Source: an uncultured Gammaproteobacteria bacterium (GTDB lineage Bacteria; Pseudomonadota; Gammaproteobacteria; CAWCPV01). Taken from it: a DNA stretch of 64,000 bases. Where the stretch lies: assembly GCA_963797555.1 (NCBI GenBank), contig CAWCPV010000014.1, positions 128,001 through 192,000 of the forward strand, given 5' to 3'. Each line of letters starts with the position of its first letter. Position 1 is the first letter of the stretch. A model generated the notes under the pieces. That model did no database searches. It had not been told where the DNA came from and saw nothing but the letters and a program-made list of their open reading frames with translations. A program made the position numbers and the translations under genes. This document shows positions 18,526-47,840 of this stretch, in pieces.

Positions 18526-18592
18526 GAACCGTCAGTCTGCGCGACCACTTCAACGGTCGGCTCCCGACCCTGACCCGCCTGAACGGCCATTC
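18526..18592 (+). repeat. dif-like site A (CGACCC core, interrupted right arm) plus 25-bp leader shared with 21860
   Basis: gaaccgtcagtctgcgcgaccacttcaACGGTCGGCTCC-CGACCC-(tgacccgcc)-TGAACGGCCATtc. Confidence 0.55.
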
Positions 18593-18802
18593 GAGTCGCG
18601 CATTTGTGCGGCGGCAACGGAACTGACATCGGCCGCATCGGCGCTGTCTCTCACCCCGCTGGAGCTGGCCCCCAGTGTGAAGATATCGCCGTGCAGCCAT
18701 CGCGCTGGGGTGTGGACAGCATGGTGAGGGCCCGCAACAGGTGCTGTGAGTACGTCTCGACGTGGGGGCTGAAGAACGACAAACGAGGCAAGGGAGCAGG
18801 CC

Positions 18803-21328
18803 GTGGCATCGGTTCAGATCTTCCTGTCCACCGTGAGTGCGGAGTTCGCGAGCTACCGCGATGCCCTGCGCCGTGACCTCGACCGCCCCAACGTCACGGT
18901 CAAGGTGCAGGAGGACTTCATCGCCACCGGCACCGAGACGCTGGACAAGCTCGACGAGTACATCCGCCAGTGCCATGCCGTGATCCACCTGGTGGGCGAC
19001 ATGACCGGGGCGCTGGCGCAGCCGCCCTCGGTGGCGGCGCTTCGGCAACGCTATGCGGATCTCGCCGAGCGGCTGCCGGTGCTCGGCCTCTTCCTGAGCC
19101 CCGACGCACTCGCCCTCTCCTACACCCAGTGGGAGGCCTGGCTGGCGCTATATCACGCCAAGGTGCTGATCATCGCCGTGCCGCAAGACGGCGCCCCGCG
19201 GGACGAGCGCTACCGGCTGGAGGAGGCACAGCGCGCCGTCCAGCAGGCCCACCTGGCGCGCCTGGCAGAGGTCGAGCGCTACCCGGAGATCCGCTTCGCC
19301 AACGCCGACCGGCTGGCGGTCGACGTGCTGCGCTCCAAGCTGCAGGACATCCTCGCCCTGGCCGGGGCGCTAGCCAAGCCCAACAACCTCCCTTACACCT
19401 CCCTCGGCAGCCTGTTCAAGGGCCGCGAGACGTTCCTCGAAGCCCTGCGCACCGAGTTCCTACGCGAGCCCGCGCGCGCCGTGGTGGTGTACGGGCTGGG
19501 GGGCGTAGGCAAGACCCGCCTCGCCGTCGAGTACGCCTGGCGCCATGCAGCCGAGTACCGGGCGCTGCTCACCGCGCCGGCCGACAGCCCCGAGTCCCTT
19601 AACCGCGGCATCGCCGCCCTGTGCAAGCCGCTCGGGCTCCCCGAGCACGAGGCCCGGGAGGAGGCGGTGCAGGTGGAGGCCGCGCTCCGATGGCTCGGGG
19701 CGCACCCCGGCTGGCTGCTCATTCTGGACAACACCGACACGCGGGAGGCGGTGGCTGCAGTCGAGAATCTGCTGCCCCGGCTCCAGCGCGGACACGCGCT
19801 CATCACCTCGCGCGTAAGCGAGTGGAGCGGGGGCGTCAAGACACGGGATCTCGACGTGCTCGACCCCGACGCGGCGGTGGCCTTCCTGCTGGAGACCACG
19901 GCGGATCGCCGCCGAGTGACCGCCAGCGACGCCCAGGATGCCCGGGCGCTGGCGACCGAGGACCTGGAGGGGCTCGCCCTGGCGCTGGAGCAGGCCGGCG
20001 CCTTCATCAAGCACACTCGTTGCTCGTTCGGGGACTATCGCAGGCGCTGGCGCGCCCGTGAGGAGAAGGTGCGTGCGTGGCACGACGCCCGCCTGATGCA
20101 GCACCCGCGCAGCGTGCTGGTGACCTGGGATGCGAGCCTCGAGCAGCTCGATGGCGCCGCCCGGGCGCTGATGAACCTCCTCTGCTGGCTCGCCCCCGCG
20201 CCGCTGCCGCGTGCCCTTCTGGAGAGCGAGGCCGCCCGGGCCACGCTCGCCCGGGGGGTCGGCTGGCTGCAGGAGGCAGGCGAGGTGCTGGCAGGCGCCG
20301 ACCCGGAAGAGGCCCTGGCCGCGCTCGCCGCCTTCTCCCTGCTGAGGTGGGATGCCGGCAACGAGGCTGTGCGTCTCCACCGCCTGGTGCAGGAGGTCAC
20401 CCGCGAGCGCATCCCCGACGAGCGCCGCGCCGCCTGGCTGGGCGCCGCGCTGGAGCTGGTCGATACCTATCTCCCAGACGACCCGCCGCCCCAGGACGTG
20501 CGCGCCTGGCCCCGCTGGGAGCCCCTGCGCCCCCACGTGGCGGCGGTGGTGGCCGCCGCCGATGCCGCGGGCATCGAGGCGCCGACCGCCCGCCTGATGA
20601 ACGAATTCGGCCTGTTCCTGCAGACCAAGGCCGTATGGGCCGAGGCCGAGCTGCTCATGCGCCGCGCCCTTGCCATCGACGAGGCGAGCCTCGGCCCCGA
20701 ACATCCCGATGTCGCCCGCGACCTCAACAACGTGGCGCTGCTGCTCAAGGCCACAAACCGCCTAGCCGAGGCCGAGCCGCTCATGCGCCGGGTGGTGACC
20801 ATCTTGGAGAAGAGCTTGGGCCGGGAGCACCCGAGCGTCGCCACCGCCCTCAACAATCTGGCGCATCTGTCCAACCGTCCGGCCGAGCCGCTCATGCGCC
20901 GCGCCCTCGCCATCGACGAGGCGAGCCTCGGGTCCGAGCATCCCGATGTCGCCACCGTCCTCAACAACCTGGCGCAGCTGCTCCACGACACCAACCGCCT
21001 AGCCGAGGCCGAGCCGCTCATGCGCCGGGTGGTGACCATCTTGGAGAAGAGCTTGGGCCGGGAGCACCCGAGCGTCGCCACCGCCCTCAACAACCTGGCG
21101 CGGCTGCTTCAGGCCACCAACCGCCTGGCCGAGGCCGAGCCGCTGAGCCGCCGCCACCTGCAGATCCTCCTGCGCTTCACCGCCGACACCGGCCACCCGC
21201 ATCCGAACCTGGATGCGGCCATCCAGAACTATGCGGGCCTGCTGGCGCAGATGGGCCAGGGCCGGGAGGACATTCAGGCCCGGCTCGACGCACTGCCGCG
21301 CGCGTACGGTCTAGCGCGCGGTCGCTGA
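18803..21328 (+). CDS. DUF4062-like effector + NB-ARC STAND NTPase + TPR repeats (bacterial NLR-like protein)
   Basis: IFLSTVSAEF...YTQWE N-domain; Walker A GLGGVGKT; Walker B WLLILDN; GLALALEQAG; LHRLVQ; 42-aa HPDVA..LNNLA TPRs. Confidence 0.88.
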   Translation: MASVQIFLSTVSAEFASYRDALRRDLDRPNVTVKVQEDFIATGTETLDKLDEYIRQCHAVIHLVGDMTGALAQPPSVAALRQRYADLAERLPVLGLFLSPDALALSYTQWEAWLALYHAKVLIIAVPQDGAPRDERYRLEEAQRAVQQAHLARLAEVERYPEIRFANADRLAVDVLRSKLQDILALAGALAKPNNLPYTSLGSLFKGRETFLEALRTEFLREPARAVVVYGLGGVGKTRLAVEYAWRHAAEYRALLTAPADSPESLNRGIAALCKPLGLPEHEAREEAVQVEAALRWLGAHPGWLLILDNTDTREAVAAVENLLPRLQRGHALITSRVSEWSGGVKTRDLDVLDPDAAVAFLLETTADRRRVTASDAQDARALATEDLEGLALALEQAGAFIKHTRCSFGDYRRRWRAREEKVRAWHDARLMQHPRSVLVTWDASLEQLDGAARALMNLLCWLAPAPLPRALLESEAARATLARGVGWLQEAGEVLAGADPEEALAALAAFSLLRWDAGNEAVRLHRLVQEVTRERIPDERRAAWLGAALELVDTYLPDDPPPQDVRAWPRWEPLRPHVAAVVAAADAAGIEAPTARLMNEFGLFLQTKAVWAEAELLMRRALAIDEASLGPEHPDVARDLNNVALLLKATNRLAEAEPLMRRVVTILEKSLGREHPSVATALNNLAHLSNRPAEPLMRRALAIDEASLGSEHPDVATVLNNLAQLLHDTNRLAEAEPLMRRVVTILEKSLGREHPSVATALNNLARLLQATNRLAEAEPLSRRHLQILLRFTADTGHPHPNLDAAIQNYAGLLAQMGQGREDIQARLDALPRAYGLARGR

Positions 21329-21859
21329 CCCATCCTCGCCGAGGCCCCCGAGCGCTGCCGCGATGGGGAGGGCGCGCAGGGGCGTCTGAGGCTCGCGGCA
21401 GCCTAGGAGGGCCGGGCGAGACTGCGCGATCAGCTCCTCGATCTCGGCGTCGATGGCCGGCAGCAGCACAGTTCAGGCAGAACTGCTGCATGCTGTCCGG
21501 GGTGTGCTCGGCGATGTACTTGAGCTTGAGCATGCGGGGTTAGGGCAGGCGCAGGTTGTAGATCGTGGCGACAGTCCTCGCGCCCAGGCGCCTCCCAGGG
21601 ATAGCGCTCGACGGCTACCGGCGCCGGGACCTGCTCCGGCGGCGGGGTCGCCTCGGGCCTGGTCAGGGTGCCGACCCCTCGCATACCTGGACATGTGTAC
21701 GGCACAGCAGCCTCTTTGCGATCCGCGTCCAGAGCGCGCGTGCTGCTGGTGTCCGGTAGGTGGTGGGTTGCTGCCGTTTCACGGCCCGGCTTCGGGGGGC
21801 GGCCAGTCGCCTGCTGTGCATGCTCGGCGTGCGTGGTATGGTCTCCCATGGTGGTTGAG

Positions 21860-21917
21860 GAACCATCAGTGTGCGCGACCACCCGGACGGTCGGTTCACG
21901 ACCCCGAGCGGTCATTC
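21860..21917 (+). repeat. dif-like site B, direct repeat of site A region
   Basis: gaaccatcagtgtgcgcgaccacccggACGGTCGGTTCA-CGACCC-CGAGCGGTCATtc. Confidence 0.6.
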
Positions 21918-22379
21918 AAGAACGCGAAAGTTAGCCGTGGGCGTTTATTAGCCCACGGTTGAAGCTTGAAGCTAGGTCGCCTCAAAATGCGGCTCTGGGA
22001 TAGCCGCTAAGGCCGCGTTCGCCTCCAGGCGCAGGTAATACAGCGGCATCTTCCTGCAAATCCACCGGCGCATCGGTGCACCCAGCACCCCATACACCCG
22101 CCGCGCCGCCTCCGCTCGCACCGGGGACTCGGTTAGCCGCACCTCCCACCGGAGCTCTCCAGCTCCCCCGCGCTCAGGGCACGCCTACGGAACCACCTGC
22201 GCAACCGCTTCGACATCTGCTCCCCCCATCACCTCGCGAACGATGGAGGGCATTGAATCAGCTTCTCGACGCTGTGCCCAGGGGGACCACGAATCTAACC
22301 GCGGGGGGCGTATAACGCCATGGCTACTACCCCGTCGCCGGCGGAGAACGGGTGTGCCAAATGTCACCAGCCAGCCTCG

Positions 22380-24439: not shown

Positions 24440-24730
24440 CGTGCCCTCCTTATCCCTGAGTGCAAATAACGACGCGAATTGCCCGTCCCGGCATATCCGT
24501 ACGCGGATATCACGAACTAAGTTCGTATCTATAGACCTCTGCGGTGCCTTTGTCAAGGAGGACGTTCGCACGGCCTGTTCAAGGTTACCAGCGCGATCTT
24601 CAAAGTCTCCGTCTCGGTCACCCCCACGGCTTTTGTGCTGCGCTAGCGAGCCCGCTCCGTTCAGACGGGGTCGGTAATCTCCCACCTAACGATCATTGCG
24701 TCTGGCGCCACCCCAGAGGATGAAAGAAGC

Positions 24731-24935
24731 TGTGGGGTGGGAGACGGCGGGAAGAGGTCGCGCAAGTTTTTGGCGGCTCGACCCCGCAACCTAACGTGAC
24801 CCGCCGGACCGACTCGTACCCCGGATTGCTTCCCTACAGAGCGCACGTTAAACAGGCCGTCGGCGGCTTGCCGCCTTCAGGCTCACTCGGTCCGGCACCC
24901 GCCGTCTCCCATCTCTTGAGTGTATTGCGACGGGA
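24731..24935 (+). ncRNA. Putative bridge/seek RNA in the IS110 5' non-coding end
   Basis: Closing stem GGGAGACGGCGGG (about 24739-24751) / CCCGCCGTCTCCC (24898-24910); internal segments match the reconstructed target (24818-24829) and donor junction (24844-24856). Confidence 0.65.
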
Positions 24936-24941
24936 GACGAC

Positions 24942-26130
24942 ATGGAACTGGTAGCGATCTTCAAGCGTCTCATCGGTCTGGATGTGCATCAGGGGCAAGT
25001 GACCGCCTGTGCCATCCTTGAGGAGGCCGACGGCCAAGTCTACATCGAGCAACGCCAATTCGGTGCCTTCAAGAAAGACCGCCGGGCGTTCGCGGAGTGG
25101 TGCGCGGGATTTCGCCCGGAGGAGGTGGTCATGGAGAGCACCGGCATTTACTGGAAAAGTCCTTACGCAGCCCTAGAAGGCGCACGGCATCCAAGCCAAG
25201 GTGGTCAACGCCCGCCACGTCAAGCAGGTCCCGGGACGCAAGACCGACATCGGCGATGCCCAGTGGCTGGCCATGTTGGCTCGCGCCGCTCTGTTGCGCG
25301 CCTCCTTCGTGCCGAAGGCCAAACTGCGCGAGCTGCGCCTGATCGCCCGGCAGCGACAGAAGCTCGTGGGCTTGGCTGCCTCGGAGAAGAACCGGCTGCA
25401 CAAGGTGCTCACCGATGGTGGCATCCGCCTGGGGGTGGTGGTGAGCGATATCCACGGCCAGTCGGCCCGTGCCATGCTGAAAGCCCTCATCCAGGGGGCT
25501 GCTGCCCACGAGGTCCTCCCCCTGGCCAGCCGCCGGCTGAAGGCGAGCCGCGAGGAGCTGCTCGATGCCCTGCAGGGGGACCTGACCGAGTCTCATCGCT
25601 TCGTCCTCGATGAATTGATGCGCCACATCGAGGAACTCGAAGCCCGCATCGCCCGCTTCGATGCTCGCTTGCTCGAAGGCCTGAAGGAGGAGGCCAACAG
25701 CCTGCTGTTGTTGCAGACCCTACCAGGGGTCAATGTCATCGGTGCCGCCATGCTGCTGGTGGAAATCGGTAGCGACATGAGCGCCTTCGGTCATGCCGAG
25801 CGGCTCGCTTCCTGGGTGGGTATCTGCCCCGGCAACCACGAGTCGGCCGGCAAGCGCCAATCGGGGCGCACCCGCAAGGGCAACCCCTATGTGCGTCGTC
25901 TGCTGTGCGAGTTCGCCCATGCCGCAAGCCGTACCCGCTTGCGCCGCGGCCGCAAACGAGCCATCATCGCTCTGGCCCACAAGATGTTGCGTATCATCTT
26001 CTGCATGCTCTCGCGCGGCCAACACTACCGGGATTCGGCCACTGACTATGAAGCCCTATTTGTGAAACGCAACGCCCCACGCTGGATCAAGGCCCTCAGC
26101 CGCTACGGCTTCCTGCCAGCCGCCGCCTGA
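24942..26130 (+). CDS. IS110-family DEDD recombinase; frameshift near 25185
   Basis: GLDVH, MESTG.YW, KTD..DA (DEDD RuvC-like); C-terminal GICPGNHESAGK serine motif. Confidence 0.9.
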
Positions 26131-26218
26131 ACCCTTCACCCCCTCCTCCTATGGCCCTCATCGGCCAGGCTCCGTCACGCCCAAAAACCGGCTTCTTTCA
26201 CGTTAAAGATTGCCTTGA

Positions 26219-26246
26219 CTGGCCGGCCCTGGCCGATTCCGGTCAC
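26219..26246 (-). repeat. dif-like site F (CGGCCA core on minus strand)
   Basis: CTGGCCGGCCC-TGGCCG-ATTCCGGTCAC; the TGGCCG.TTCCGGTCACTGGA stretch is 20/21 identical to the 47813 site. Confidence 0.55.
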
Positions 26247-26513
26247 TGGACCCAGTAACTGCAGTGAAGCGATTCCCGACGCGCGCGCGTAAGGTATGCC
26301 GTAGAGGAGACGCAAGGGAGGCCAGGCGCGGGCCAGAGGGCGGTGCCGTGGCCGTGGAGGCATCACCCGCGGGAAGCGCGCAGTACGCGGATGGTGTCCT
26401 TTCCGCGGTTTACGGGGAAGCTGGTACTCGTCCTCGACGTGAGGCGGCGGCACCGTGTCGCCGGCCGGACCGGCCGGGGGGGAGGGAAGAATGGTGATCA
26501 GGGCATCGAAGTC

Positions 26514-28165: not shown

Positions 28166-28178
28166 GCTGCGCCAGTGG

Positions 28179-32400: not shown

Positions 32401-32408
32401 GGGAGAAA

Positions 32409-35172: not shown

Positions 35173-35400
35173 GCAGAGCTATACCGGCTGGAGAGGGACG
35201 CCAGGGACGCCCACAGGGGCCTATGGATGCTGCCCGAGGCGCAGCAGAGGGTGGCGCCGTGAGTGGAGGCATCGTGGGCGTTCGGAGCACTGAAATGCCG
35301 GAGGCTTTCGACGCCGCCTGCTCCGGACTCGAATGCGGGGTGACATGGGAGTCGGCGGGGAGAAACTCCCGGAAACTGCTTGGCTCTCTCTTTCATTTCG

Positions 35401-35428
35401 ATGGCGGCTTCCGACCCAGAGCAGCCAT
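35401..35428 (+). repeat. dif-like site C (11-6-11)
   Basis: ATGGCGGCTTC-CGACCC-AGAGCAGCCAT. Confidence 0.7.
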
Positions 35429-35493
35429 TGGGCAGCCGATAGATCCGCCGCTCATCGGCAACAGCCCGCGACAGAGAGGTTGCGCGCCCATTG

Positions 35494-35834
35494 GACCGCC
35501 AGCCGGTCGGCGTTGGCGAAGCGGATCTCCGGGTAGCGCTCGACCTCTGCCAGGCGCGCCTGCTGGACGGCGCGCTGTAAACGAGGCAAGGGAGCAGGCC
35601 GTGGCACCGGTTCAGATCTTCCTGTCCACCGTGAGTGCGGAGTTCGCGAGCTACCGCGATGCCCTGCGCCGTGACCTCGACCGCCCCAACGTCACGGTCA
35701 AGGTGCAGGAGGACTTCATCGCCACCGGCACCGAGACGCTGGACAAGCTCGACGACTACATCCGCCAGTGCCACGCCGTGACCACCTGGTGGGCAACATG
35801 ACCGGGGCGCTGGCGCAGCCGCCCTCGGTGGCGG
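35494..35834. repeat. Scrambled near-identical copy of the 5' part of the NLR-like gene
   Basis: 35579-35834 matches about 18781-19037 (direct); 35494-35578 matches 19228-19321 inverted. Confidence 0.85.
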
Positions 35835-35835
35835 T

Positions 35836-36059
35836 GATACCAACCGCCCACCCACGCCCTTGCCCCTGCTGCGGTGCGCCCATGGTGATCCTCTCGACCT
35901 TCGAGCGCGCTCATGCCCCGCGTGCACCGACTGGAAGATTGCTTTGGACCTGCTGCTTACCGTGGTCGGCGGTAGGCGCCTGATAAGCCTCGGAGGAGGA
36001 AACCGCGGGGGGCGAACGATGAGGCCAGCGCAGGGAGGGGTGCTATGGGGATTTGAATG
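35836..36059. mobile_element. IS91-like transposase C-terminal remnant (+) and element end (-)
   Basis: PCPCCGAPMVILSTFE zinc-ribbon tail; 35931-36059 repeats 46553-46682 and contains oriIS-like CATTCAAATCCCCATAG on the minus strand. Confidence 0.6.
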
Positions 36060-36376
36060 TTGCCGGCTGGTCTTGGAATGTCCCATATCAAGACACAGCC
36101 CGACCCGACCGGTGGGCAGAATATGGGGCGTGTGCGCTGAAGCGCATGCCCTAGCTCTCCGACATCTGGCGAAGCTGGCCCGCTTGGCCGGGCTCACGTC
36201 GTCATCGTTCCAGCCGCCTTGACCTTGGTCGCCGAACCACTGCCTCGACATATTCGTCCCCGCTGGATAGCCCACGGATAGCAAATTACCCGAGCCAACA
36301 GCGACGCTTGGGTCGCAACAACTGTGAGTCAATCTACGAGGAAATGCGTTACTGTCGGAGAGACCCTTCATGGGTC

Positions 36377-38040: not shown

Positions 38041-38237
38041 TGCTTGGATCCTTTACGCAAGTTACACGTCCTACACAGGGCCTGGCCGTTGGCGACCACC
38101 GTCGCGCCACCGCGGGAGAACGGCACGATGTGGTCCGCATGGAAATCGTCGGTCAATGGCGCGCCGCACCGCTGACATCGACCTCCTGCCACCCAGGCGA
38201 GGATACGGCGTTGGCGATGGCTGAAGCCGCGCCTCAT
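38037..38237 (-). CDS. Small HNH endonuclease
   Basis: CQRC...HADHIVPFSRGG...NGQALCRTCN; ATGA overlaps on both sides. Confidence 0.9.
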   Translation of the reverse strand: MRRGFSHRQRRILAWVAGGRCQRCGAPLTDDFHADHIVPFSRGGATVVANGQALCRTCNLRKGSKQ

Positions 38238-38506
38238 TTGCTTACCCAATACTCGGTGAGCTGAATCTCACGCACCGGGAGATTGGCCGGGGGTTGAAAC
38301 TGGGCGTGCCGATTGACTCGGGCGACCGCGGCGGCATAGGAGACCAGCCCGGATTGGATCACCCAGCCGTCGCGTCGCATGTCCGAGATCACCTTGGTCA
38401 GGCTCGGTACTCCGAACAGCGTCAGGGACTCCAGGTGGGTGATCCGATTTCCTGCGGCCAGATGCTCCTTGACGGCCAGCACCATGCCATGCCGCATCGA
38501 GGTCAT
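38234..38506 (-). CDS. Small winged-helix DNA-binding protein
   Basis: KEHLAAGNRITHLESLTLFG...KVISDMRRDGWVI pattern; ATGA overlaps. Confidence 0.7.
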   Translation of the reverse strand: MTSMRHGMVLAVKEHLAAGNRITHLESLTLFGVPSLTKVISDMRRDGWVIQSGLVSYAAAVARVNRHAQFQPPANLPVREIQLTEYWVSK

Positions 38507-39113
38507 ACCCAGGCCTCCGTGTCCAAGTCCGCCAACGAACGCCCGATGTCGACGCTGTCCCCGTCGTTCTCGCGGTCCCTGCAACTCGTCTCCAGCGCGA
38601 GCACCCGCCAGCCGCCGTCGGCAAACGCGCGGTCGAGCGGCCACATGACGAAGGGCAAGCCACCGGTACGCAGATCGAACTCGGGCTCGTCGAGGGGACC
38701 AGCGAAGAGTTCCACAAGGGATGCTGCGCTCGCCATGATCTGCCGGGGGCTGAAGTCGGCGTCCAGGGAACGCCGGAGTCTCTTGGTACACTGCGAATAT
38801 CTGCTGTGAGCGAGTCAATGTGCTCTCCTGAGGTCCGCCACCCTCAGTGGATCGATGTGCTACCGGGCACGAGCCGGTAGGGCCGAATTCCCCGATCACT
38901 GTCTTCGACCGGTCTAAGCGCCGCAACCGCTTGCGAATTGCCCCCCAATACCCCTCGGAAGACCTTGACCGGATCATCGGTCACGACCAAGCCGAGTTCG
39001 GTCCCCGCATACAGCAGCGCAAACGAGATGCGCGCCGATGGGATTACGTCATCATCCCGCAGGCGCTGGATCAGGGTCCGCAGCCGTTCCATCGGGTTGT
39101 CCTGGGAAAGCAC
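38503..39113 (-). CDS. Hypothetical protein (~200 aa when frameshifts are joined)
   Basis: ORFs 38844..39113 and 38503..38736 bridged by a third frame; stop overlaps the wHTH start. Confidence 0.45.
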
Positions 39114-39166
39114 ATGCTCTTGGTTGCTCGCATCGTCTTGTATGGCGGCTCGCCACCTGATGGATG

Positions 39167-40092
39167 TCAGTCGTACTCAGCGACGGCAGCGAGATGCACC
39201 ACACGGTCCTCGACGGTCAACACTGCCCCAGCGATGTTCATCCCATGCAGCCGCAGGTGCTGCCCTTCCCCGATGACGGAATATGCTTCAACGGGCGTAG
39301 CGGCGACGCGCTGGAGTAGCGAGTGCACCTGATCGAGCGAGACTTCCCCGCGGGGGCCGTCCTCCCCATCGAGCGCATCCAGCGCATACCCCGCCATGAT
39401 CTTGCCGAACAGCTTCTTGAAGGTCTCCGGATGGTCGAAGACCTCGACTCCATTAAGCTGTCCGCGGACGGCAAGGACACGCCGACCTGCTTGGGCTCAG
39501 GTTGCAGGGACGTTCGATAGGCGTCGACGCCCCGACGCCGCTGCTCGTAAAGATCGCTCATCGCTTCGGTCCTCGATCGCGCACGCATGCGCGACGACTT
39601 GGCAGCGATGTCTTGCCAGATCGCCCTCTGGTCAGCCTGGCAGGAGCCGTGATGCCTCAAGTTCTGAGAGACCTGGTGTATCTTTGCCGCACGGGCGCTG
39701 GCATAGAGCGTACGGTCAGCCGACCGAAATTCCTGCGAGACGTACGCCCAGCGGCCCCGTTCAACACATGAGACGGGAATGCGGATCTTCTTGAGGGGAC
39801 CGACCAGGATCGTGAGGTTGACGATTCGGTTCTGACGAGCACCGACCAACTCTTCGCCGTCCACTAGCAACACGGGCTTGTCTGAATAGTTTTCGAACCA
39901 AAGCTCGGGGACGCTGCCGCCTTCCGACACCTCGGTGACCCTGGCGAGGCTCCGCGCCAATGCTTCATCGAGCGTTAGGTAGGAAGCAGGTATATCGGTC
40001 TCGGCAAACAGTGGCACCATAGTCACGGCGCGGAAGGATCGAGGGACGCCGATGCTTAGCCGTTGCAGGACTTCTTTGATTTGGACAACCAT
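39167..40092 (-). CDS. ARPP-1 (DUF6569) family protein; frameshift near 39480
   Basis: YLTLDEAL, VTEVSEGGSVPEL, DGEELVGARQNRIVN, IPVSCVERGRW, C-terminal RVVHLAA; GGAGAGG RBS. Confidence 0.78.
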
Positions 40093-40124
40093 TGTTTCCT
40101 CTCCGATTCGGTACACCACTCCTC

Positions 40125-40141
40125 TGCAGTAGGCGTGCCAA
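40125..40141 (-). promoter_or_regulatory. Sigma54 -24/-12 promoter for the ARPP-1 operon
   Basis: Minus strand TTGGCACGCCTACTGCA, 33 bp upstream of ATG 40092. Confidence 0.65.
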
Positions 40142-40615
40142 TGGCACACGAAAACCGAGGATGTTAAGCATGATCAACGCATTAAGGCCGTTTCGACCTC
40201 CATGGCGTTGACCGGCCTCAGCGACATAGGATAAGATTGTTTGCGAAACAGAATAGGCTTTACGTCCGGCATGGTCTTCGACGCCGCAGCAGCCGAGCCC
40301 GTGCCGGCCTTCGAATTCGGCCAGACCCTCTCCTGGTGGACCTCGCGGCGCCACCCCTCAGCAAGAAGCACGGCGGCGTTCACGCAACTCAGCGGGAAGC
40401 ACCCCAACAGCAGCCCACAAGCAATCCCAGGGCGCAAGGCTGCGCCTGCATCGGGCACCCCGACACGGCCGTTTCGCAGACCGCATCAAATCCTGCCGAG
40501 GACGCGGTCCCGGTGCACGCCCCTGTGCGGCCCGCCGCCCAAGTTGGCAGGCCGCTAGCTTCCTTGCTAGGATTTTTAGGAAGCGCCGAAAAGCAACTTC
40601 CCCCAACGGATTGCG

Positions 40616-41107
40616 ATGAGATTTTCAGCTCTTTCGCTGTTTCTGGGCAGCCTGTCCAGCGCCGCATTGGCGGGTGGTCTGAGCGAGATCGAGCTTCTCG
40701 ACGGAAGCAAGCTGTATGGAGAGATCGTCTCCGTTCGGAAGGACATATACAGGGTAAAGTCTCCCAGTCTCGGTACCATCGACATCGACAGCTCCAAGAT
40801 CCGGCTGATTCGCTTGAAGCCGACTAGCGCGCAAACAGAGGCACAGACCGGGGTATCGACCGGAATCGATTCTGCGCGTCGCTCGGAGATCGAAGTCCTG
40901 CAGAAATCCATGGTGAGCGATCAGGCCACCATGAGTCTGATCACGTCTCTTCAGAACGACCCCGAAGTGCAGGCGCTGTTGAAAGATCCGGCGATCATGT
41001 CTGCAGTGACCTCCGGTGACGTGACGACCCTCATGGCCAATCCCCAGTTTCTCCAGCTCTTGCAGAATCCGAAGATCCAGGAGATCGAGAGGAAGGCCAT
41101 CCGCTGA
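40616..41107 (+). CDS. Secreted hypothetical protein with STI1/DP-like C-terminus
   Basis: Signal peptide; [11 protein letters not shown] beta domain; [12 protein letters not shown]...[11 protein letters not shown]. Confidence 0.7.
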
Positions 41108-41305
41108 AAGTCGCCTCCTCACGCATCATTCCGGCGCTGGATTCGGGATCTCGCGATGCGCAGAGGGTCGCACCGTGGGACCGGAGATGCGCCCTCACAC
41201 TGAAGGCCGCCTGCTTTCTACCTCGCCTGGTCCGGACCCGCATGCGGGGTGACATGGGAGCGGCGGAGAGAAACCCCCGGCACCCGATTGGATCTCTATC
41301 TTTTG

Positions 41306-41333
41306 ATGGCCGCTTCCGACCCACAACGGCCAT
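41306..41333 (+). repeat. dif-like site D (11-6-11)
   Basis: ATGGCCGCTTC-CGACCC-ACAACGGCCAT with perfect 7-bp outer palindrome. Confidence 0.75.
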
Positions 41334-41418
41334 TCGCCTCCGGCACGACATACCAGGTTGGAGAAGGCTGAAGCTTGACCGCTCCCCGCCACAGGACTAC
41401 CTTCCTCCTACGCCACGT

Positions 41419-41437
41419 GCGGTTAAATTTCCTATCC
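41419..41437 (+). mobile_element. oriIS-like terminus of an IS91/ISCR-type element
   Basis: GCGGTTAAATTTCCTATCC resembles the ISCR oriIS GCGTTTGAACTTCCTATAC. Confidence 0.55.
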
Positions 41438-41454
41438 TTCAAGGAGACAATGCC

Positions 41455-42279
41455 ATGCCTATCATCACGACCAAAGACGGCGTTGAGATCTTCTACAAGG
41501 ACTGGGGCAAGGGTCAGCCCATCGTGTTCAGCCATGGGTGGCCGCTGTCGGCAGATGACTGGGACACGCAAATGCTGTTTTTCCTGCGTCACGGCTATCG
41601 CGTCATAGCCCATGACCGCCGTGGCCACGGCCGGTCCACGCAAACGGGCGACGGTCACGACATGGATCATTATGCTGACGATCTTGCGGCGCTTACCGCG
41701 CATCTCGACCTGAAGAATGCCGTGCATGTCGGTCACTCCACCGGCGGCGGCGAGGTGGCGCATTACCTGGGACGGCATGGCGAAAGCCGGGTGGCCAAGG
41801 CGGCGCTCATCAGTGCGGTGCCGCCGCTAATGGTGAAGACAGCGGCCAATCCGGGGGGCCTCCCCAAGGAAGTGTTCGACGGGTTGCAAGCGCAGCTCGC
41901 GGCTAATCGCTCGCAATTCTATCGCGACCTGCCAGCGGGGCCTTTCTATGGCTTCAACCGACCGGGCGTGAACGCCTTAGAGGCAATCATTCAAAACTGG
42001 TGGCGTCAGGCCATGATGGGCGGAGCGAAGGCACACTATGATGGCATCGTTGCCTTCTCACAGACCGACTTCACCGACGATCTCAAGAAGATCACGGTAC
42101 CGGTGCTGGTCATGCACGGGGACGACGATCAGATCGTTCCCTACGCTGATGCCGGGCCGTTGTCAGCGAAGCTACTGAAGAACGGGACGCTGAAGACCTA
42201 CAAGGGCTTTCCGCACGGCATGCCTACCACGCAGGCGGACACGATCAACGCCGACCTGCTCGCGTTCATCAAGGACTGA
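41455..42279 (+). CDS. cpo: Non-heme chloroperoxidase / alpha-beta hydrolase
   Basis: [43 protein letters not shown]. Confidence 0.92.
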
Positions 42280-42390
42280 TTGAGGCCACCATCAGGAAAG
42301 CGGCCACACGCCGCCCTCGGCGAAGGGCGCGGAATCACGAGAGTGCGGGAGGGAAGCGGACACGGTGGCAGCCGGCGTGGCGAGCCCTAA

Positions 42391-42760
42391 TCACGCGGCT
42401 CTCGCCTTCTGCTGGCCTTCCCCTCCGGCTGCACGCCATCGATGAAGGCGATACCGGCGCGAACCAGCGTGAGCAGGCGTGCGCCGTCGAGCCGCCGCCA
42501 CCGCACCTGCGCCATGTCCGGCAGTTTGTGGGCCATCAAAGAGCCCCTTCGTGCGTGAGCAGGCGCCCTTCGTCACGCGCTGCCGCAGCCGCACCGTCGC
42601 GAACGGCATTCGATTACGTAGCTGGTCCGCAGATGCTTCCAGTGCTCAGCGGGGAAGTCGAAGAACGTGAGCAGCACGTCAGCGTCCTTCTCCAGGGTCG
42701 TGACGGCCTTCGGGTACTCTGGGACGTACTCGGTGCCGAACCGCTGTACCGCGTCAGGCG
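42391..42760 (-). mobile_element. IS256-family transposase C-terminal fragment
   Basis: YPKAV..LEKD...LLTFFDFPAEHWKHLRT...FATVRLR. Confidence 0.8.
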
Positions 42761-43072
42761 ATGGCACAGCTCCAAGCGGGGAGATCGGGCAATCCCAGAG
42801 GCAAGCCCAAGGCGCCAAGGACAAACGCACCGGGCTGCGGGCGCTGCTCCAGCCCCATGCCGATGCGTTGGTGAAGAAGGCCGTAGTAATACCGGAATCA
42901 GTGCCCGGATTCGCGCGGAATCCGCAGTCCTCGGCCGCTTCCGGGGACTTCTGCCGAAGCGCAGCGGCCATCGCCGCTATCTGCGCCCGCCCGCGCCTGC
43001 GATCACAGCGTCACGTCTCGCCTCGCTCCACTTCCACTTCGGCAAAGCGACAATCCCCGAACGCCTTCCGCC

Positions 43073-43732
43073 CTATTCGTCCTTGAACCCCACCGCCCAG
43101 TGGCTCCCGTCGCAGAAGGGCTTGTTCTTGGAGGAGCCGCAGCGGCAGAGGGTGTAGTGCTCCAGCGAAGCGCCCTCACCGCGCGCTTGGCCGAGCAGCT
43201 CGATGCCGCCCGTGACTGCGTACGGCCCGTTGCGGGTGGCGGTGACCATCGGCTCGCGGTCCTGGTCCCGGTGCTCCACGCCGCCGACGGAATAGCTGAG
43301 CGCCCCCGAAGGACACCTGCGCACGATCCGGATGATTTCCTCCACCGTGGCACCGTCGGGGTCGATCCAAGGCTCCTCGCCCATGCGGAATACCTGCTTC
43401 AGATGCTCGGTGCAAAACCCCGCGTGAGAGCAGATACCGCGGTTGTCGTGGATGGTGATGCCCCGGCCTGGGTAATCGACCCGTTTGTTTGCGTTTCCGT
43501 CCGTAAGCTTCTTGTCACTGAACCCGTTGATGCTGTGGGTGCCATCGCAAAACGGCTTGTTCTTGGAGCCGCCGCAACGGCAGAGCGCCGCGCCTTTGAC
43601 GTTGGCGCAGGCTTGCCCGTTCCACCTGCGCAGATAGGGCACCGGCGCGGGGTCCAGATCGTACAGCAGATAGTAAGGCCCGTTGGGCACGCAGGCGATC
43701 TTGGGCTTTGCGGGAGCGTCGTCGACACTCAT
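43073..43732 (-). CDS. CDGSH iron-sulfur protein (two CDGSH domains around a ferredoxin-like domain)
   Basis: LCRCGGSKNKPFCDGTH; CSHAGFC...CPSGAL; LCRCGSSKNKPFCDGSH. Confidence 0.9.
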   Translation of the reverse strand: MSVDDAPAKPKIACVPNGPYYLLYDLDPAPVPYLRRWNGQACANVKGAALCRCGGSKNKPFCDGTHSINGFSDKKLTDGNANKRVDYPGRGITIHDNRGICSHAGFCTEHLKQVFRMGEEPWIDPDGATVEEIIRIVRRCPSGALSYSVGGVEHRDQDREPMVTATRNGPYAVTGGIELLGQARGEGASLEHYTLCRCGSSKNKPFCDGSHWAVGFKDE

Positions 43733-43817
43733 GTGCAGTCTCCGTGAGTAGTTCAAGGGATGCCGCCGGTGCTCCGGACGGGCTATCGCGTCTGACGCCA
43801 GCTCTGCAGGCGTGTTT

Positions 43818-44165
43818 TCAGCCCTTGGGCGTAATCTTGCCGGTGAATGACTGGGCTGCGACCTTGCCATCCCGCACGACGAACGTGTCCGTTCCCATCT
43901 CGTACACGTTCTCGGCAGTCTCGGCCGTCCACAGAATGTAGGCATAGTCGCCCTCGACGAACCGCTGCGTCATGCTGAACGTCGCGCCAGGTTTCCCAAA
44001 CTCCGCCAACATCGCTTGGAACAACGACCTAATCGCGTCGGCTCTGAGCGGTCCGTTCGGCGTGAACAGGACGGCACCCGGCGCATAGTCAGATAGGATG
44101 CCCGCGAGGTCGCCTTCGTCAAAACACTTCAAGTGGTGGTCTAGAACCTCTTTCGTCGAAGCCAT
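43818..44165 (-). CDS. NTF2/SnoaL-like protein
   Basis: VLDHHL..F..GDL..ILSDY, AYILW, GTDTFVVRDGK. Confidence 0.85.
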   Translation of the reverse strand: MASTKEVLDHHLKCFDEGDLAGILSDYAPGAVLFTPNGPLRADAIRSLFQAMLAEFGKPGATFSMTQRFVEGDYAYILWTAETAENVYEMGTDTFVVRDGKVAAQSFTGKITPKG

Positions 44166-44307
44166 TTCACGGTCGTCCTGTGTTAGCGGTACCACTTTGC
44201 GGGCTTTCGGGAGAAAACGTCCAGTAGTCAGGATGACTTCTCTGCCATCAGGCGCTTGCGGGTCGCCAAGGAGTGATGATGGGGGACCAAGGCGGACGCA
44301 GCGCGGG

Positions 44308-44775
44308 TCAACGCCGGCCTCCGCCACCATGTCCACCCCCTCCCCAGTGTCCACCACCTCCCCAGTGTCCGCCACCTCCCCAGTGTCCGCCACCTCCCCA
44401 GTGTCCGCCACTGCCCAAGTTTCCACCACCGCCCCAGTGTCCAGCACCACCCAAGGTTCCACCACCACCCCAGTATCCGCCACCGCCCCAGGGTCGACCA
44501 CCACCCCAGTGTCCAGCATCACCCCAGTGTCGGCCACCGCCCCAGTGTCCACCACCGCCCCAGTGTCCACCACCGCCCCAGTGGCCGTAGCCTCCTGGGG
44601 CGAAGACGACGCCGAGGCTCGGCCAGTCGTAGCCATAGTTGTAGAAATAGCCCGGCTCGGAGTACCCATAGTCGGAGTAACCGTAGCCGTCATACGGGCC
44701 AGGTCCGGTGGGGACCGCCACGCATCCGGAAAGAACAGCAGCAACGGTGACCAGCAATATTCGGAGGGGTCTCAT
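44308..44775 (-). CDS. Gly/His/Trp-repeat lipoprotein
   Basis: Lipobox LSGC, Tyr-rich segment, then about 15 GGGGHW-like hexapeptides. Confidence 0.7.
   Translation of the reverse strand: MRPLRILLVTVAAVLSGCVAVPTGPGPYDGYGYSDYGYSEPGYFYNYGYDWPSLGVVFAPGGYGHWGGGGHWGGGGHWGGGRHWGDAGHWGGGRPWGGGGYWGGGGTLGGAGHWGGGGNLGSGGHWGGGGHWGGGGHWGGGGHWGGGGHGGGGRR
44320..44590. repeat. 18-bp tandem repeat (about 15 units)
   Basis: Units of ccccagtgtccrccaccn. Confidence 0.9.
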
Positions 44776-44959
44776 GACAGGCTCCGGGGTTCCAGACTTC
44801 ATATAGAATGCGACACGGACGCAAGGCCGCCGGTTCCATCCCCTCGGTGCAGCAACTTGCCGTTGCGCCAACCGCAGCGCCGCCGACGCCTTGGCCAACA
44901 CCCCGGAGAGATCGGGAGCACGAAGCGAACCTGCGGACACGACGCCTGTCAACGCGGCC

Positions 44960-45331
44960 ATGTCCGCCGGGGGGGGTTGACGATCCGGCTGGAGTGCATC
45001 GACGCCCCGGAACTTCGTCAAAACTCACGACAAGCGCTCGAAGGAGACTTTCGCGAACTTGGTATTCGGTCGTAGCGTCCGGGTAGAAGACCACGGCCGG
45101 GACCGCTACGGTCGGCTGCTCGGGCGGGTGCGCTACCGGGATCTCGACGTGAATCTGGAGCTGGTCAGGGAGGGTGCGGCATGGGTGTATGTGCGGTACT
45201 GCCACGATCCTGAGCTGTACCGGCTGCAGAAGGAGGCCAGGAGGCGCACAGGGGCCTGTGGGGGCTGCCGGAGGCGCAGAGGGTCGCGCCGTGGGAGTGG
45301 AGGCATCATGCGCGGGAGACGCGCTGACTGA
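44960..45331 (+). pseudogene. Thermonuclease (SNase) family gene, frameshifted
   Basis: IRLECIDAPELRQ, DRYGRLLGRV, VNLELVREGAAWVY. Confidence 0.8.
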
Positions 45332-45424
45332 CACCCCTTGCTTCGATCCGCTCACGCGGACTGTGGGTGCTGTGGGAGGCCGGGGGAAAGAAACCGCGGC
45401 GGACCCGATTAGCTCTCTTTTTCG

Positions 45425-45452
45425 ATGACCGCTTCCGACCCACAACCGCCAT
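45425..45452 (+). repeat. dif-like site E (11-6-11)
   Basis: ATGACCGCTTC-CGACCC-ACAACCGCCAT. Confidence 0.7.
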
Positions 45453-45815
45453 TCGCGTCCGGCACGACATCCGCAGAACGGTGGCGGAGCACCCACTCTG
45501 AACCCAAGAAAGTGTGTTCCCGGCGGACATTCAACGACGATAGCTTGACCCGCCCCAAGAGACCGCTGACCCGGACCCTTGCCTTCGCCCGGCGGAATAT
45601 CGGCCGGAGTTGGCCTGCGAGTTGATCAGAGGGTGACTTGGCAGTCCCCAAGGGGCTGCCGGAATACTTCGCCTGCCCAACCCAGATCCTTCTCGACCTG
45701 GCACCCACTTCCTCCCGCACTCTGTGCCCGGCAGAATGTATTAGTATCATGTGATATCCTTATCAATAGGAACCTCCGTCAACGGGAGCAACAAACCTAC
45801 TGGGAGGACACGGTC

Positions 45816-46091
45816 ATGACTACGCTGATTATTGCTGTTGCCACTCTTTTCATCGTCGGTATCGCGTCGTACAGCCTGTTCCGCGACTCTGACCCGTTTG
45901 CCAGCCACCGCAGGGCGATGCACCGCGCCGGGTTTACCTTCGTCAGTTCGGCGCCTAACGCAAGCACAAAGCCCAAGCCCTATGAAGGCGGGGGCCGGGA
46001 GCGTCTGCACGCTGAGGGCTGGGAGCCGAGGACACTGAATCTCACCGACCAAGGGTGGGCGAACCGTCGTCGGAGCAAGGCCGCGATGTAG
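45816..46091 (+). CDS. Small hypothetical membrane-anchored protein
   Basis: GGAGG RBS and N-terminal TM helix. Confidence 0.45.
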   Translation: MTTLIIAVATLFIVGIASYSLFRDSDPFASHRRAMHRAGFTFVSSAPNASTKPKPYEGGGRERLHAEGWEPRTLNLTDQGWANRRRSKAAM

Positions 46092-46552
46092 CGCTCCTTG
46101 CGCCCCGAGAGACCTCGTACCCACCCGTGGCGTGCACGCTCAATGCGGCGCACCAGCGGCTCCTTCGGGAGCCGTTTTTTTTGGGGAGTCAGGCGGTACA
46201 CTGGGTCAGACCGTGAGAAGCCGCTACGAAGTCGTCCACTGCAACTGGTACAACGCCCGACAGAATCGAGTGAGGCAGGAGAAAGGGCAGCCCCGTGTGC
46301 AACATGGGTGAGTTGGTCCCCCTGATCGCGTGGTGGACCGCCTGGGCCGTCGTTCGAGCGGGTGAGCGCCGTCCGTTCCCAGGCACCTCGGGCGGCGGCC
46401 TGTTGCCGGAGGCAGGCGAGGTAGTCTGCGCCAACAGCAGCGTCGGCGGACTTACTGTTGCCACCCGTGAGATCGTCCCGAGCCCCAAATAGCCGCTTCT
46501 GTTAAGGGTTATCAGATGCCTACCGCCGTAGAGGCGATCGAGAGACGCTGCG

Positions 46553-46821
46553 CTGGAAGGTGGCTTTGGAGCTGCTGCTTACCGTGGTCGGCGGTAGGCG
46601 TCTGATAAGCCTCGGGGGAGGAAACCGCGGGGGGCGAACGATGAGGCCGGCAGCGGGAAGGCGCTATGGGGGGATTTGAATGGAACCTATGGGTCGCAGA
46701 GGGGGTGGGTGGGACGGTGCAGGAGAGGTGTGCAGAGTGCTGCGCGCAGGGAGTGGCACCGACGCCACGCCGGCCCGTGGTCGCGGAAGATGTCCGCGAC
46801 CTCCAAGGCCTGCCGCGGCAC
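46553..46821 (-). mobile_element. Internally deleted IS91-like transposase (first ~20 codons) and element end
   Basis: GTG at 46821 gives MPRQALEVADIFRDHGPAWR, a typical IS91-like N-terminus; end repeat 46553-46682 shared with 35931-36059. Confidence 0.7.
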
Positions 46822-46824
46822 AGC

Positions 46825-47713
46825 TCAGGTGCGCGGCGGCTCCTGTGGCGTCAGCCGCTCCAGGGGACTGGTGACCTCACGCAGGGTGCGGGTGGCCACC
46901 CGGGCATAGAGCGCGGTGGTCTCCAGCTTCTTGTGCCCGAGCAGCACCTGGATGACACGGATGTCCTCCCGGTGCTCGAGCAGATGGGTAAGCTATGTCT
47001 GAGAGTATGCAGCGACACCCGCTTGGCGATCCCGGCCTCAGCGGCGGCGGTGTGGCAGGCGCGGTTGAGTTGGCGGGTCGACATCGGATCGAGCGGGTCC
47101 TGGCCGGGGAAGAGCCAGCCGTGGGGCAGCATCTTGCCGTGCACATGCGCCTCACACCACCCTTGGCGCAGCAGCGCGAGCAAGGTCGGGGAGAGCATCA
47201 CGTAGCGGTCCTTGCGCCCCTTGCCTTGTTCAACGCGGATCACCATCCGCTCGCTGTCGATATCGTCGACCTTGAGCGCCACCACCTCCGAGGTGCGCAG
47301 CCCCGCCCCGTAGGCCACCGCCAGCGCCGCCTTGTACTTCAGCCCCGGCGCCGCCTCCAGCAGGCGCATGACCTCCTCGGGGCTTAACACCACCGGGAGT
47401 TTGCGCGGCACTCGCACATGGCTCATCTTCGCCATCAGCTCGCCACGCCCGAGGGTCACCTCGCAGAAAAACCGCAGCGCCGTCACCGCCGCGTTCAGAC
47501 TGATTCGGGAAACACCGCTCTCGGTCAAGTGCAGCTGGTAGCGGCGCAGGTCCTCCGCTGTCGCGGTATCCGGGGAACGCCCAAGAAAGCGCGTGAAGCT
47601 CTTCACCCAGCGGATATAGTGGCTCTGGGTCTTCTCTGCGAGAGCTTGCGCAGGCGCATGTCCTCGATCATGCGCTGACGCAACGGGCTCACCGGTTTAT
47701 GCTCGATACTCAT
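46825..47713 (-). CDS. Tyrosine recombinase with N-terminal SAM-like domain (IS91-associated type); two frameshifts
   Basis: LRQRMIEDMRLR, YGAGLRTSE, QGKGRKDR, HTLRHS, VLLGHKKLETTALY (R-K-H-R-H-Y catalytic set). Confidence 0.88.
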
Positions 47714-47812
47714 GGGTCTGCTCCGACGGCTTCCGGGTGCGCCACTGGGTGTTTCCCGGTAATGCGGTGGATGTCAGCACGGTCGAGCAGATCAAGCGCG
47801 ATCTCGCAGCGA

Positions 47813-47840
47813 GTGACTGTTCTTGGCCGGTTCCGGTCAC
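47813..47840 (-). repeat. dif-like site G, 100 bp upstream of the recombinase
   Basis: Minus strand GTGACCGGAAC-CGGCCA-AGAACAGTCAC; right arm 8/11 identical to the site C right arm. Confidence 0.65.

Follow-up and report, generated by a model that had tools for sequence, protein, structure and literature searches.

Short palindromes punctuate an accessory region in the genome of an uncultured gammaproteobacterium, raising the question of what kind of element they belong to and which enzyme, if any, acts on them. The region lies in a 64,000-nt stretch, hereafter the window, that corresponds to C14:128001-192000 of a fragmented assembly (G000; 5.35 Mb, 20 contigs, 84.6% complete); C-numbers such as C2, C5, C14 and C18 denote contigs of this assembly, and bare coordinates are those of the window. 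A first-pass annotation had described seven sites, A to G, as two 11-bp arms around a 6-bp spacer, had assigned them to a tyrosine recombinase encoded beside site G and had proposed a cassette system of the integron or pdif kind. That interpretation is right in kind, in that recombinase-type sites do mark junctions, and wrong in its particulars. We find that the block from 18.4 to 47.8 kb is a decayed accretion zone, a graveyard of mobile DNA and not a working integron-like cassette system, and that the recombinase is, by homology, the dead integrase partner of an IS91-family rolling-circle transposon. The reading we favour, to which we give somewhat better than an even chance, is that the palindromes serve both as core sites of a tyrosine recombinase and as targets to which integrase-bearing IS91 elements home, and that the window holds a graveyard built at such sites. 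It proceeds from direct observations: a family of sites in the genome, homology breakpoints at their spacers, transposon junctions within them and, in other genomes, their co-location with a short recombinase gene, here called int′.

A site family with breakpoints at the spacer

The best reference points are sites C, D and E (Table 1), whose sequences and positions agreed exactly with the first-pass annotation on re-reading. On the minus strand D reads ATGGCCGTTGT-GGGTCG-GAAGCGGCCAT, two inverted arms around an asymmetric 6-bp spacer, and the proposed tyrosine-recombinase core-site anatomy holds. A degenerate 28-mer built from D and E has two window matches at ≤3 mismatches, against none in 100 shuffles. 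The original count of seven 11-6-11 palindromes survives for C, D and E and not for the others. A and B each consist of a hairpin and a right arm, the left part pairing with the spacer itself (GGTCG-loop-CGACC) ahead of a right arm of the ..ACGG(C/T)CAT type; F and G are loose, inverted relatives that have TGGCCG.TTCCGGTCAC in common, a string also present at two other loci. Site A was found by eye and by BLAST, and B, C, D and E by a genome-wide search with a right-half pattern; all five lie on the plus strand. The outer parts of the window (1-18000 and 48000-64000) contain no site.

Across the genome, a pattern of spacer plus right arm finds 17 sites, against 0 in a reversed-genome control (12 against 0 with a stricter pattern). 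An nhmmer model of C, D and E gives 18 hits at E ≤ 1, the three seeds included, on C2, C4, C5, C6, C7, C9, C14 and C18, and we place the family at roughly 17–20 copies. We tabulated 20 sites by their flanks, distinguishing left types L1, L2, L3 and transposon ends from right types R_a, R_b, R_c, R_d and R′. L1, the left module common to C, D and E, is the 3′ end of a staphylococcal-nuclease gene (PF00565) followed by about 95 bp, and L3 (AGGAACC.TCAGT.TGCGCGACCAC) is the leader and 5′ end of int′. Some copies combine L1 with a right module, some have L1 alone and some have a right module behind unrelated left sequence; with hits printed in register, homology between copies always switches at or beside CGACCC. 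In the tabulated set L1 pairs with R_a, R_c and R_d, L2 with R_c and R′, L3 with R_b and R_a, and transposon ends with R′, R_b and R_a. The expectation that homology would break at the 6-bp spacer is thus borne out between copies within this genome. An empty and an occupied site can also be set side by side: C9:262132 consists of L2, a full site and R′, and C5:280296 of a transposon end, then TGACCCACAACGG... and the same R′, the two having 3847 bp in common at 99.35% identity, beginning exactly at GACCCA. A long insertion sequence (IS) as the right module was considered and rejected, the right flanks sharing just 70–150 bp, two duplicated segments excepted.

Predicted hairpin folding energies at C, D and E are −7, −7.2 and −2 kcal/mol, with z-scores of −1.7, −2.6 and 0.05. 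Hairpin energy thus varies between copies, and a change in one arm is not compensated in the other; half-sites for a protein on duplex DNA fit the family better than a folded structure does.

Among 40 same-class genomes compared, 1 contains the motif, once, and a metagenome scan with the site 21-mer returned two unrelated contigs only, one of them A+T-rich. A 26-nt G+C-rich core, GTGTTCCGACCCACAACGGCCATTCG, stands at the very start (1-60) of an A+T-rich 1.1-kb metagenome contig (L101).

Short recombinase genes and IS91-type elements

The only intact int′ gene of the genome (C18:37715-38392) is a 226-amino-acid (aa) open reading frame (ORF) with PF00589 alone, and a site lies 18 bp before it. 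Remnants of its leader and 5′ end abut sites A and B in the window (Table 1), and other L3-plus-site remnants occur on C6, on C16 (with R_a) and at C14:455660. NCBIfam models give int′ weak Xer- or FimE-like matches only. Homologues, 208–213 aa long and typically about 209 aa, consist of the catalytic domain only and align from residue ~25. Of 400 genomes of the class, 21 have one at E ≤ 1e-20 (a tally that includes two unpublished genomes), as do 49 of 401 Pseudomonadota genomes sampled (~12%) at E ≤ 1e-40; a protein search returned at least 8000 matches, mostly of 208 aa and many on contigs of 0.7–1.0 kb.

In some other genomes int′ is bracketed by a site of the form ATGNCCGCTTN-GGGTCG/TGGCCG-.... 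Two loci (L109 and L110) have the order site, ~100 nt, int′, ~35–150 nt and inverted site, a unit of 0.76–0.87 kb set among housekeeping genes, and the full consensus, ATGNNCGCTTN-GGGTCG-NNAAGCGNNCAT, is that of D on the minus strand. We examined 34 int′ loci for the half-site ATGNCCGCTTNGGGTCG at ≤3 mismatches, which gave 33 matches in 117,402 bases. A same-strand half-site lies 94–133 nt upstream of the aligned part of int′ in 8 of the 34 loci, two of these eight having it at 37 and 234 nt because the alignment starts elsewhere in the protein; an inverted half-site lies just past the int′ stop codon in 7, mostly with the spacer TGGCCG, as in G. Both flanking sites are present at three loci and one or the other at twelve.

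The densest arrangement is in another genome, G421 (locus L165, G421:C17:382000-385200, 48% G+C), where a 213-aa int′ is followed by six full sites within 2.5 kb. These are 33-bp G+C-rich palindromes, GAATG(T/A)C(C/T)GCTTT-spacer-GAAGCAGTCATTC, and they separate four to five single ORFs, with 8 half-site matches against 0.8 in shuffles. At the gathering score Pfam recognises none of the array ORFs; one resembles TPR weakly, below cut-off. A second integrase gene, of 491 aa, adjoins the array, which ends at an lpdA-like (dihydrolipoyl-dehydrogenase-like) core gene. In nine other int′ regions of 15–20 kb we counted 1–7 half-site matches against 0.0–1.5 in shuffles, with one region, L171, not above its shuffles. 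The int′ loci of two congeneric species (G421 and G436) show no synteny beyond the int′ gene itself. Thus the association of the sites with tyrosine recombinase genes that the first-pass annotation saw holds here and in other genomes, and its cassettes find a counterpart in G421, where single-ORF units stand beside a short recombinase; the intervals in the window are of another kind, as described below.

The recombinase gene in the window itself belongs elsewhere. It had been taken for an intI-like platform gene, and is instead a broken integrase gene of an IS91-family transposon. Within the pseudogene (Table 1), the ORF at 46851-47606 carries PF00589 and a SAM-like N-domain, PF13495; the intact paralogue on C5 has 302 aa. 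Scanning the intact integrase against one genome per species yielded 599 candidate stretches; 548 proved to be relatives, and 80 were retained. Identities are 57–76%, and many of the relatives are found on contigs of only 2.2–3.0 kb or several times within one genome. As in IS91/ISCR elements, relatives carry Y2_Tnp and Zn_Tnp_IS91 directly downstream: the next ORF is such a transposase in all three relatives tested, and in RefSeq annotation a ‘site-specific integrase’ likewise precedes an ‘IS91 family transposase’. The genome under study has five integrase–transposase pairs and two truncated copies. Family X comprises four copies, on C4 (two), C17 and C18; family Y comprises the complete element on C7, one on C5 whose transposase gene is truncated and the transposase-deleted copy in the window. 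The transposase of the C7 twin matches PF04986 at 220.6 bits and PF14319 at 119 bits, that is, a Y2 HUH domain with an N-terminal zinc-binding domain. Homology of the window copy to C7 ends at 46759, inside the zinc domain, the transposase and the terIS end having been lost. Upstream of the integrase start codon (47711-47713), homology to the C5 and C7 paralogues ends at 47724; the native upstream region has therefore been replaced, and G came to lie beside the recombinase through rearrangement. The comparison of G and this gene with attI and intI is right as to distance, G being ~100 bp from the start codon, and wrong as to meaning, the link being a rearrangement artefact.

An IS91/ISCR subgroup with an upstream integrase gene is, we presume, represented in ISfinder, although it did not appear in the papers searched. 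Our literature searches found no paper on target preference or integrase function in integrase-bearing IS91 elements, and to our knowledge no function has been assigned to the IS91-associated integrase gene.

The junctions of these elements lead back to the sites. At the integrase side, the terIS end reads ...CCGCGCGAGCGGTTTAGTCC in family Y (C5 and C7) and ...CCGCGTAAGCGGTTTAGTTC in the four family-X copies, which have four different flanks; in each case GTCC or GTTC comes after a subterminal palindrome. Both family-Y copies continue with TC and then (C/T)GACC(C)A.AACGGCCATTCG, which is spacer plus right arm, and the insertion is 2 nt beyond the spacer. The opposite element end (GTTAAGGGTTATCAG...) abuts left arms, ATAGCCGCTTCT in the window (46489-46500) and GTCCGCATTT in C7. 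There is no target duplication at the two C7 junctions, and the junctions of the C5 copy, the C7 copy and the window remnant all fall in the site. An account of the IS91 family (PMC13181058) describes elements that make no target duplication, whose terIS end, upstream of the transposase, combines a subterminal palindrome with a tetranucleotide for cleavage (CTCG or GTTC), and whose target tetranucleotide adjoins oriIS. In their terIS-side palindrome followed by GTCC or GTTC, and in the lack of target duplication, the present elements resemble IS91, IS801 and IS1294 as covered there. They differ from IS91/ISCR in their target, which is here more than a tetranucleotide: ~17 nt are conserved, in a motif with two inverted arms.

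This motif is seen in other genomes as well. Among 57 unique foreign flanks, the 19 nt outside the integrase-side end follow G.CcGcT....gGcCA.a, and position −4 is C in 57 of 57. Read on the minus strand (ATGGCCGTTGTGGGTCGGA) and scored with a matrix of these flanks, site C reaches 13.9, D 12.4 and E 11.2, compared with a median of 8.8 among the training flanks; a score of 12 is attained at a fraction of 2e-5 of control positions. A motif carried by the transposon itself can be ruled out: in Bradyrhizobium, three copies agree at every one of their first 1500 nt, yet have only 9–10 of 19 flank bases in common, so the motif belongs to the target. The int′-type half-site fits the foreign IS91-integrase flanks in one register only, ending 2 nt before the element end. 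At that register the mean is 6.3 mismatches, against 9.9–11.8 at 11 other registers, and of the 56 flanks 10 come within 3 mismatches and 17 within 5, where other registers have 0–1 and shuffles a fraction (≤5) of 0.002. This one-register fit suggests that integrase-bearing IS91 elements home, in fixed orientation, to int′-type sites, and it suggests a function for the IS91-associated integrase gene. At the oriIS end, the flank is ...CCGCT(T/C)(C/T)T in most of 15 complete copies; the adjacent tetranucleotides in these 15 (TTTT, TCCT, TTCT, ATTT, TCTT, GTTC, CTTC and others) are pyrimidine-rich, with no single one recurring throughout.

The nearest precedent that we found for such homing is the IS1202 family, whose ISAjo2 group is reported to insert a few bases from pdif/dif sites (PMC10132070). 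There, too, an IS seeks out the binding site of a tyrosine recombinase, in one orientation and at a set spacing of a few bases. The differences are that HUH chemistry is at work here, that the site is another one and that the homing element carries its own recombinase.

One further element stands apart from the window. At C14:69152-69685, a 534-bp miniature-like derivative ends on one side in an IS91-type oriIS-side module and on the other in a terIS-like hairpin, GGCCGAAAGGCC, and is flanked by two inverted right modules of the site family.

Taken as a mechanism, our favoured reading would have two kinds of small mobile element, int′ units and integrase-bearing IS91 transposons, use the same core site. 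The short recombinase would recombine DNA at the spacer, joining or exchanging whatever flanks the site on the left and right, and IS91 elements with an extra Xer/IntI-like integrase would home to the site, placing their terIS end 2 nt beyond the spacer with no target duplication. Either int′ or the IS91 integrase would then bind and cut the site, and we infer from the pattern of flanks that site-to-site recombination produced their reassortment. The 18.4–47.8-kb block would have been built by repeated insertion and recombination at such sites and would then have decayed, which would explain the patchwork structure of this 29-kb block; the recombinase beside G is a dead transposon gene. If the sites are real crossover points, they would represent a second route, besides integrons and the dif modules of Acinetobacter, for shuffling accessory genes at short recombinase sites, one involving a very small recombinase present in ~12% of the Pseudomonadota genomes sampled (49/401).

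Tentatively, and with the balance of probability clearly against so broad a claim, int′, the site and the integrase-bearing IS91 elements could form one widespread, undescribed module-exchange system. In it, int′ would swap modules at 28–33-bp sites with GGGTCG/TGGCCG spacers across Pseudomonadota chromosomes, plasmids and islands, and the IS91 integrase would read the same site and steer the HUH transposon into it. A tyrosine recombinase would then be serving as a targeting factor for a different transposition chemistry.

Weighing the alternatives

Several observations count against tyrosine-recombinase core sites as the explanation. The intact int′ gene on C18 shows an upstream site only (≤3 mismatches), 22 of the 34 int′ loci have no half-site at this threshold at either expected position, and a search around the int′ homologue of pMOL30 gave no clean site at ≤3 mismatches. 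Sites A and B score poorly on the foreign-flank matrix (4.6 and 8.6). The transposon junctions have no shared overlap, so that insertion resembles HUH and not tyrosine-recombinase chemistry, and by a crude score the two flanks of foreign copies are no more palindromic than expected (6.87, with 6.81 in mismatched pairs and 6.6 in shuffles). The loose half-site consensus is no commoner in this 65% G+C genome than in the control (44 matches against 46 at ≤2 mismatches, 476 against 525 at ≤3), and the foreign-flank matrix gives match numbers close to the control up to a score of 12; an excess at score 14 is inflated by the 19-mer ATGACGGTTATGCGCCGAT, which has ~22 genome copies (for example C18:40776 and C14:409825) and presumably lies inside a multicopy IS. 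Since neither the loose consensus nor the matrix is enriched in the genome, site membership rests on homology between copies, and since these copies are mutually related, the sites, many as they are, do not count as independent observations. Finally, no recombination product, circle or alternative junction was seen in the data, which are metagenome contigs only. Contigs of four marsh-metagenome runs compared with 30001-49000 gave no joint at C, D or E, although contigs cannot show that a variant is absent; one 373-nt contig spans D unchanged. The read runs found contain at most 0.20 of the sampled words, and high depth over 46.5-47.75 kb in the marsh metagenomes reflects integrase copies of many organisms.

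The most serious competitor, which we consider possible and yet clearly less probable than our favoured reading, holds that the sites are insertion targets of IS91-type (HUH) transposition only. On this view the left arm ends in a pyrimidine-rich tetranucleotide that the transposase reads, perhaps while it is extruded in a hairpin; tyrosine recombinases would play no part at the site, and the flanks would have been reassorted by one-ended read-through transposition, homologous recombination between transposon copies and deletions. This accords with the IS91 family as described in PMC13181058 and PMC5714925, without target duplication, dependent on an oriIS-adjacent tetranucleotide and often carrying adjacent DNA along. 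It also accords with the absence of shared overlap at the junctions, with the ...CCGCT(T/C)(C/T)T flank at the oriIS end of most of the 15 complete copies and with the 534-bp derivative at C14:69152-69685, which has both end types and lies between two right modules. What it leaves unexplained is the occurrence of the site around int′, or in an array beside int′, without an IS91 element nearby, and the combinations of L1, L2 and L3 with R_a, R_b and R_c that have no transposon end at all. Moreover, canonical IS91 needs 4 nt, whereas ~17 nt are conserved here.

We regard as improbable the proposal that a single segment, a nuclease 3′ end with its downstream DNA, was duplicated to give C, D and E, spread with plasmid or island remnants and carries the palindrome as an incidental operator or weak terminator, the mobile elements around it being there by chance. 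The first-pass annotation had itself cautioned that these three sites share flanks, and they do, over up to ~350 bp on the left, the PF00565 nuclease 3′ end included, and 20–140 bp on the right; nuclease fragments lie beside four L1 copies. Set against this, five L1 copies have no nuclease part, one nuclease copy (C17) has no site, and the right-half copies have six unrelated left partners. Transposons end exactly in the site, the breakpoints fall at the spacer, and the two unrelated metagenome contigs, including the A+T-rich one, carry the 21-mer too. As for a terminator, eight are predicted in 35000-46000 (shuffle mean 6.6), none of them at C, D or E.

To an integron (attI/attC with IntI) or a module system served by XerC/XerD at pdif sites we give very little credence. 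The 11-6-11 geometry and the common orientation of A to E would suit such a system, and the NCBIfam models that best match the IS91-associated integrase, none of them at its cut-off, bear the names ‘integron integrase’ and Xer. The intact C5 paralogue scores 175.4 bits against TIGR02249, in two stretches, where the cut-off is 265 (the window pseudogene scores 108.3 and an int′ homologue 24.5), and 151–158 bits against the XerC and XerD models, with cut-offs of 330–335; int′ scores lower still. As had been noted at the outset, the arms are unlike the GTTRRRY boxes of attC, by eye, and unlike dif. A search with a shape that we take to be that of dif found a single match in the assembly, the canonical dif-like site CATACGTATAATGTATATTATGTTAAAT (...CGTATAA-TGTATA-TTATGTTAAAT) at C14:267913-267940, outside the window. 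Integrons are comparable in having a recombinase gene beside the first site, and the G421 array of sites separating single ORFs recalls them; they differ in that the recombinases here have no IntI-specific domain and score under the cut-off, in that the window modules are large, mixed and multigenic on both strands, and in that the sites are short palindromes of double-stranded type, in contrast to attC hairpins of 57–141 nt. With the pdif modules of Acinetobacter (PMC6449649, PMC7399989 and PMC13141974) the family has in common sites of ~28 bp with two arms and a 6-bp spacer that punctuate accessory DNA and exchange their flanks. Unlike those modules, it has arms that are not dif, recombinases that are not XerC/XerD, a chromosomal setting and modules of putative mobility; sites A to E and the half-site at 46489 are all on the plus strand, with no alternation, whereas pdif modules have sites in opposite orientation.

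Barely credible, finally, is a family of extragenic palindromes of the repetitive extragenic palindrome (REP) or bacterial interspersed mosaic element (BIME) type spread by a RAYT (Y1 HUH) transposase: the sites are palindromes scattered between genes, Y1_Tnp is matched 33 times in the genome and an IS110-family element, of a family that targets REPs, lies beside F, but the ~17–20 copies are confined to stretches rich in mobile DNA on seven contigs, the nearest Y1_Tnp match is 6–10 kb from any site (by comparison of coordinates, not systematically computed), the flanks reassort at a fixed point and the sites are associated with tyrosine recombinases.

Composition of the accessory block

The sites and the mobile-element remnants of the window are listed in Table 1.

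Table 1. Sites and mobile-element features of the accessory block, in window coordinates.
Feature	Position	Strand	Description
Site A	~18553-18593	+	GGTCGG-CTC-CCGACC hairpin, extended spacer, right arm GAACGGCCATTCG; looser int′-type site
Site B	~21886-21919	+	GGTCG-GTTCA-CGACC hairpin and right arm GAGCGGTCATTCA
Site C	35401-35428	+	Full palindrome ATGGCGGCTTC-CGACCC-AGAGCAGCCAT; left flank L1 (nuclease 3′ fragment from 35176), right flank R_d
Site D	41306-41333	+	Full palindrome; left flank L1 (from ~41158), right flank short R_a (to 41351)
Site E	45425-45452	+	Full site, arms incompletely complementary; left flank L1 with nuclease fragment 45008-45331, right flank R_a (to ~45545)
Site F	26219-26250	-	Divergent relative; TGGCCG-type spacer on plus strand; 11 bp past the end of the IS110-family element
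Site G	47813-47840	-	Divergent relative GTGACTGTTCT-TGGCCG-GTTCCGGTCAC (plus strand); starts 8 bp after the IS4/IS1634-like transposase gene fragment
Left-arm half-site ATAGCCGCTTC	46489-46499	+	Directly abuts the oriIS-side end of the IS91-type element; absent from the first-pass list
int′ leader and 5′ end remnant at site A (L3)	18524-18552	-	Abuts the site; 78% to C18:38368-38472
int′ leader and 5′ end remnant at site B (L3)	21797-21885	-	Abuts the site; 83% to C6:84173-84285; 82.7% to C18:38331-38428
Integrase pseudogene	46828-47713	-	In-frame TAG and N-terminal frameshift; 98.7% identical to the C7 twin, 90% to the intact C5 copy
oriIS-side (transposase-distal) end module, family-Y IS91-type element	46500-46753	-	Y2 transposase gene between module and integrase deleted
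Second, isolated oriIS-side end module fragment	35931-36077	-	Same module as at 46500-46753
IS110-family insertion sequence	24684-26208	+	Near-identical copies on C3, C5, C10, C14 and C16

Two IS4/IS1634-like fragments, 18365-18416 and 47724-47805, bracket the whole accessory block. They are colinear pieces of one 1.95-kb element, intact copies of which on C16 and C5 encode a 573-aa ORF; the two pieces are 695 bp apart there, against 29.3 kb here. Between them, the modules from site to site measure 3–13 kb and hold several genes on both strands. The intervals A–B, C–D and D–E are mosaics of pseudogenes, IS pieces and duplicated fragments, on both strands, and so do not correspond to the gene cassettes that the sites were first thought to delimit. 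An NLR-like gene (DUF4062-AAA-TPR, 18803-21328) is one source of such duplications: its 5′ part recurs next to site C (18781-19037 matching 35579-35834 at 98–99% identity), with a third copy at C2:186403-186682.

Other annotations of the block gave little. The window has no tRNA or tmRNA gene whose 3′ end could have served as an att core, and no Rfam family was hit in it at the gathering score, with chance-level hits only at 45000-46800. PADLOC, run on 10 module proteins, returned weak helicase-level hits only, which provides no basis for calling the modules defence systems.

Two genes of the block appear to be split. At 29451-31165, a thiamine-pyrophosphate enzyme has its N-terminal domain (with a faint, below-threshold middle-domain hit) and its C domain in adjacent ORFs, and at 36377-38040 a ResIII/helicase-C gene is likewise divided between adjacent ORFs; both are consistent with regional decay. 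Just to the right of site B, 22064-22332 belongs to a dispersed repeat of ~230–270 bp with at least 12 copies, 80–82% identical, on many contigs. At 44278-44635, 14–15 tandem 18-bp units (CCACCACC.CCCCAGTGT-like) lie in two overlapping ORFs, 43818-44744 on the minus strand and 44098-45075 on the plus strand; these would encode a Gly- or Pro-rich repeat protein, the plus-strand ORF having no Pfam match.

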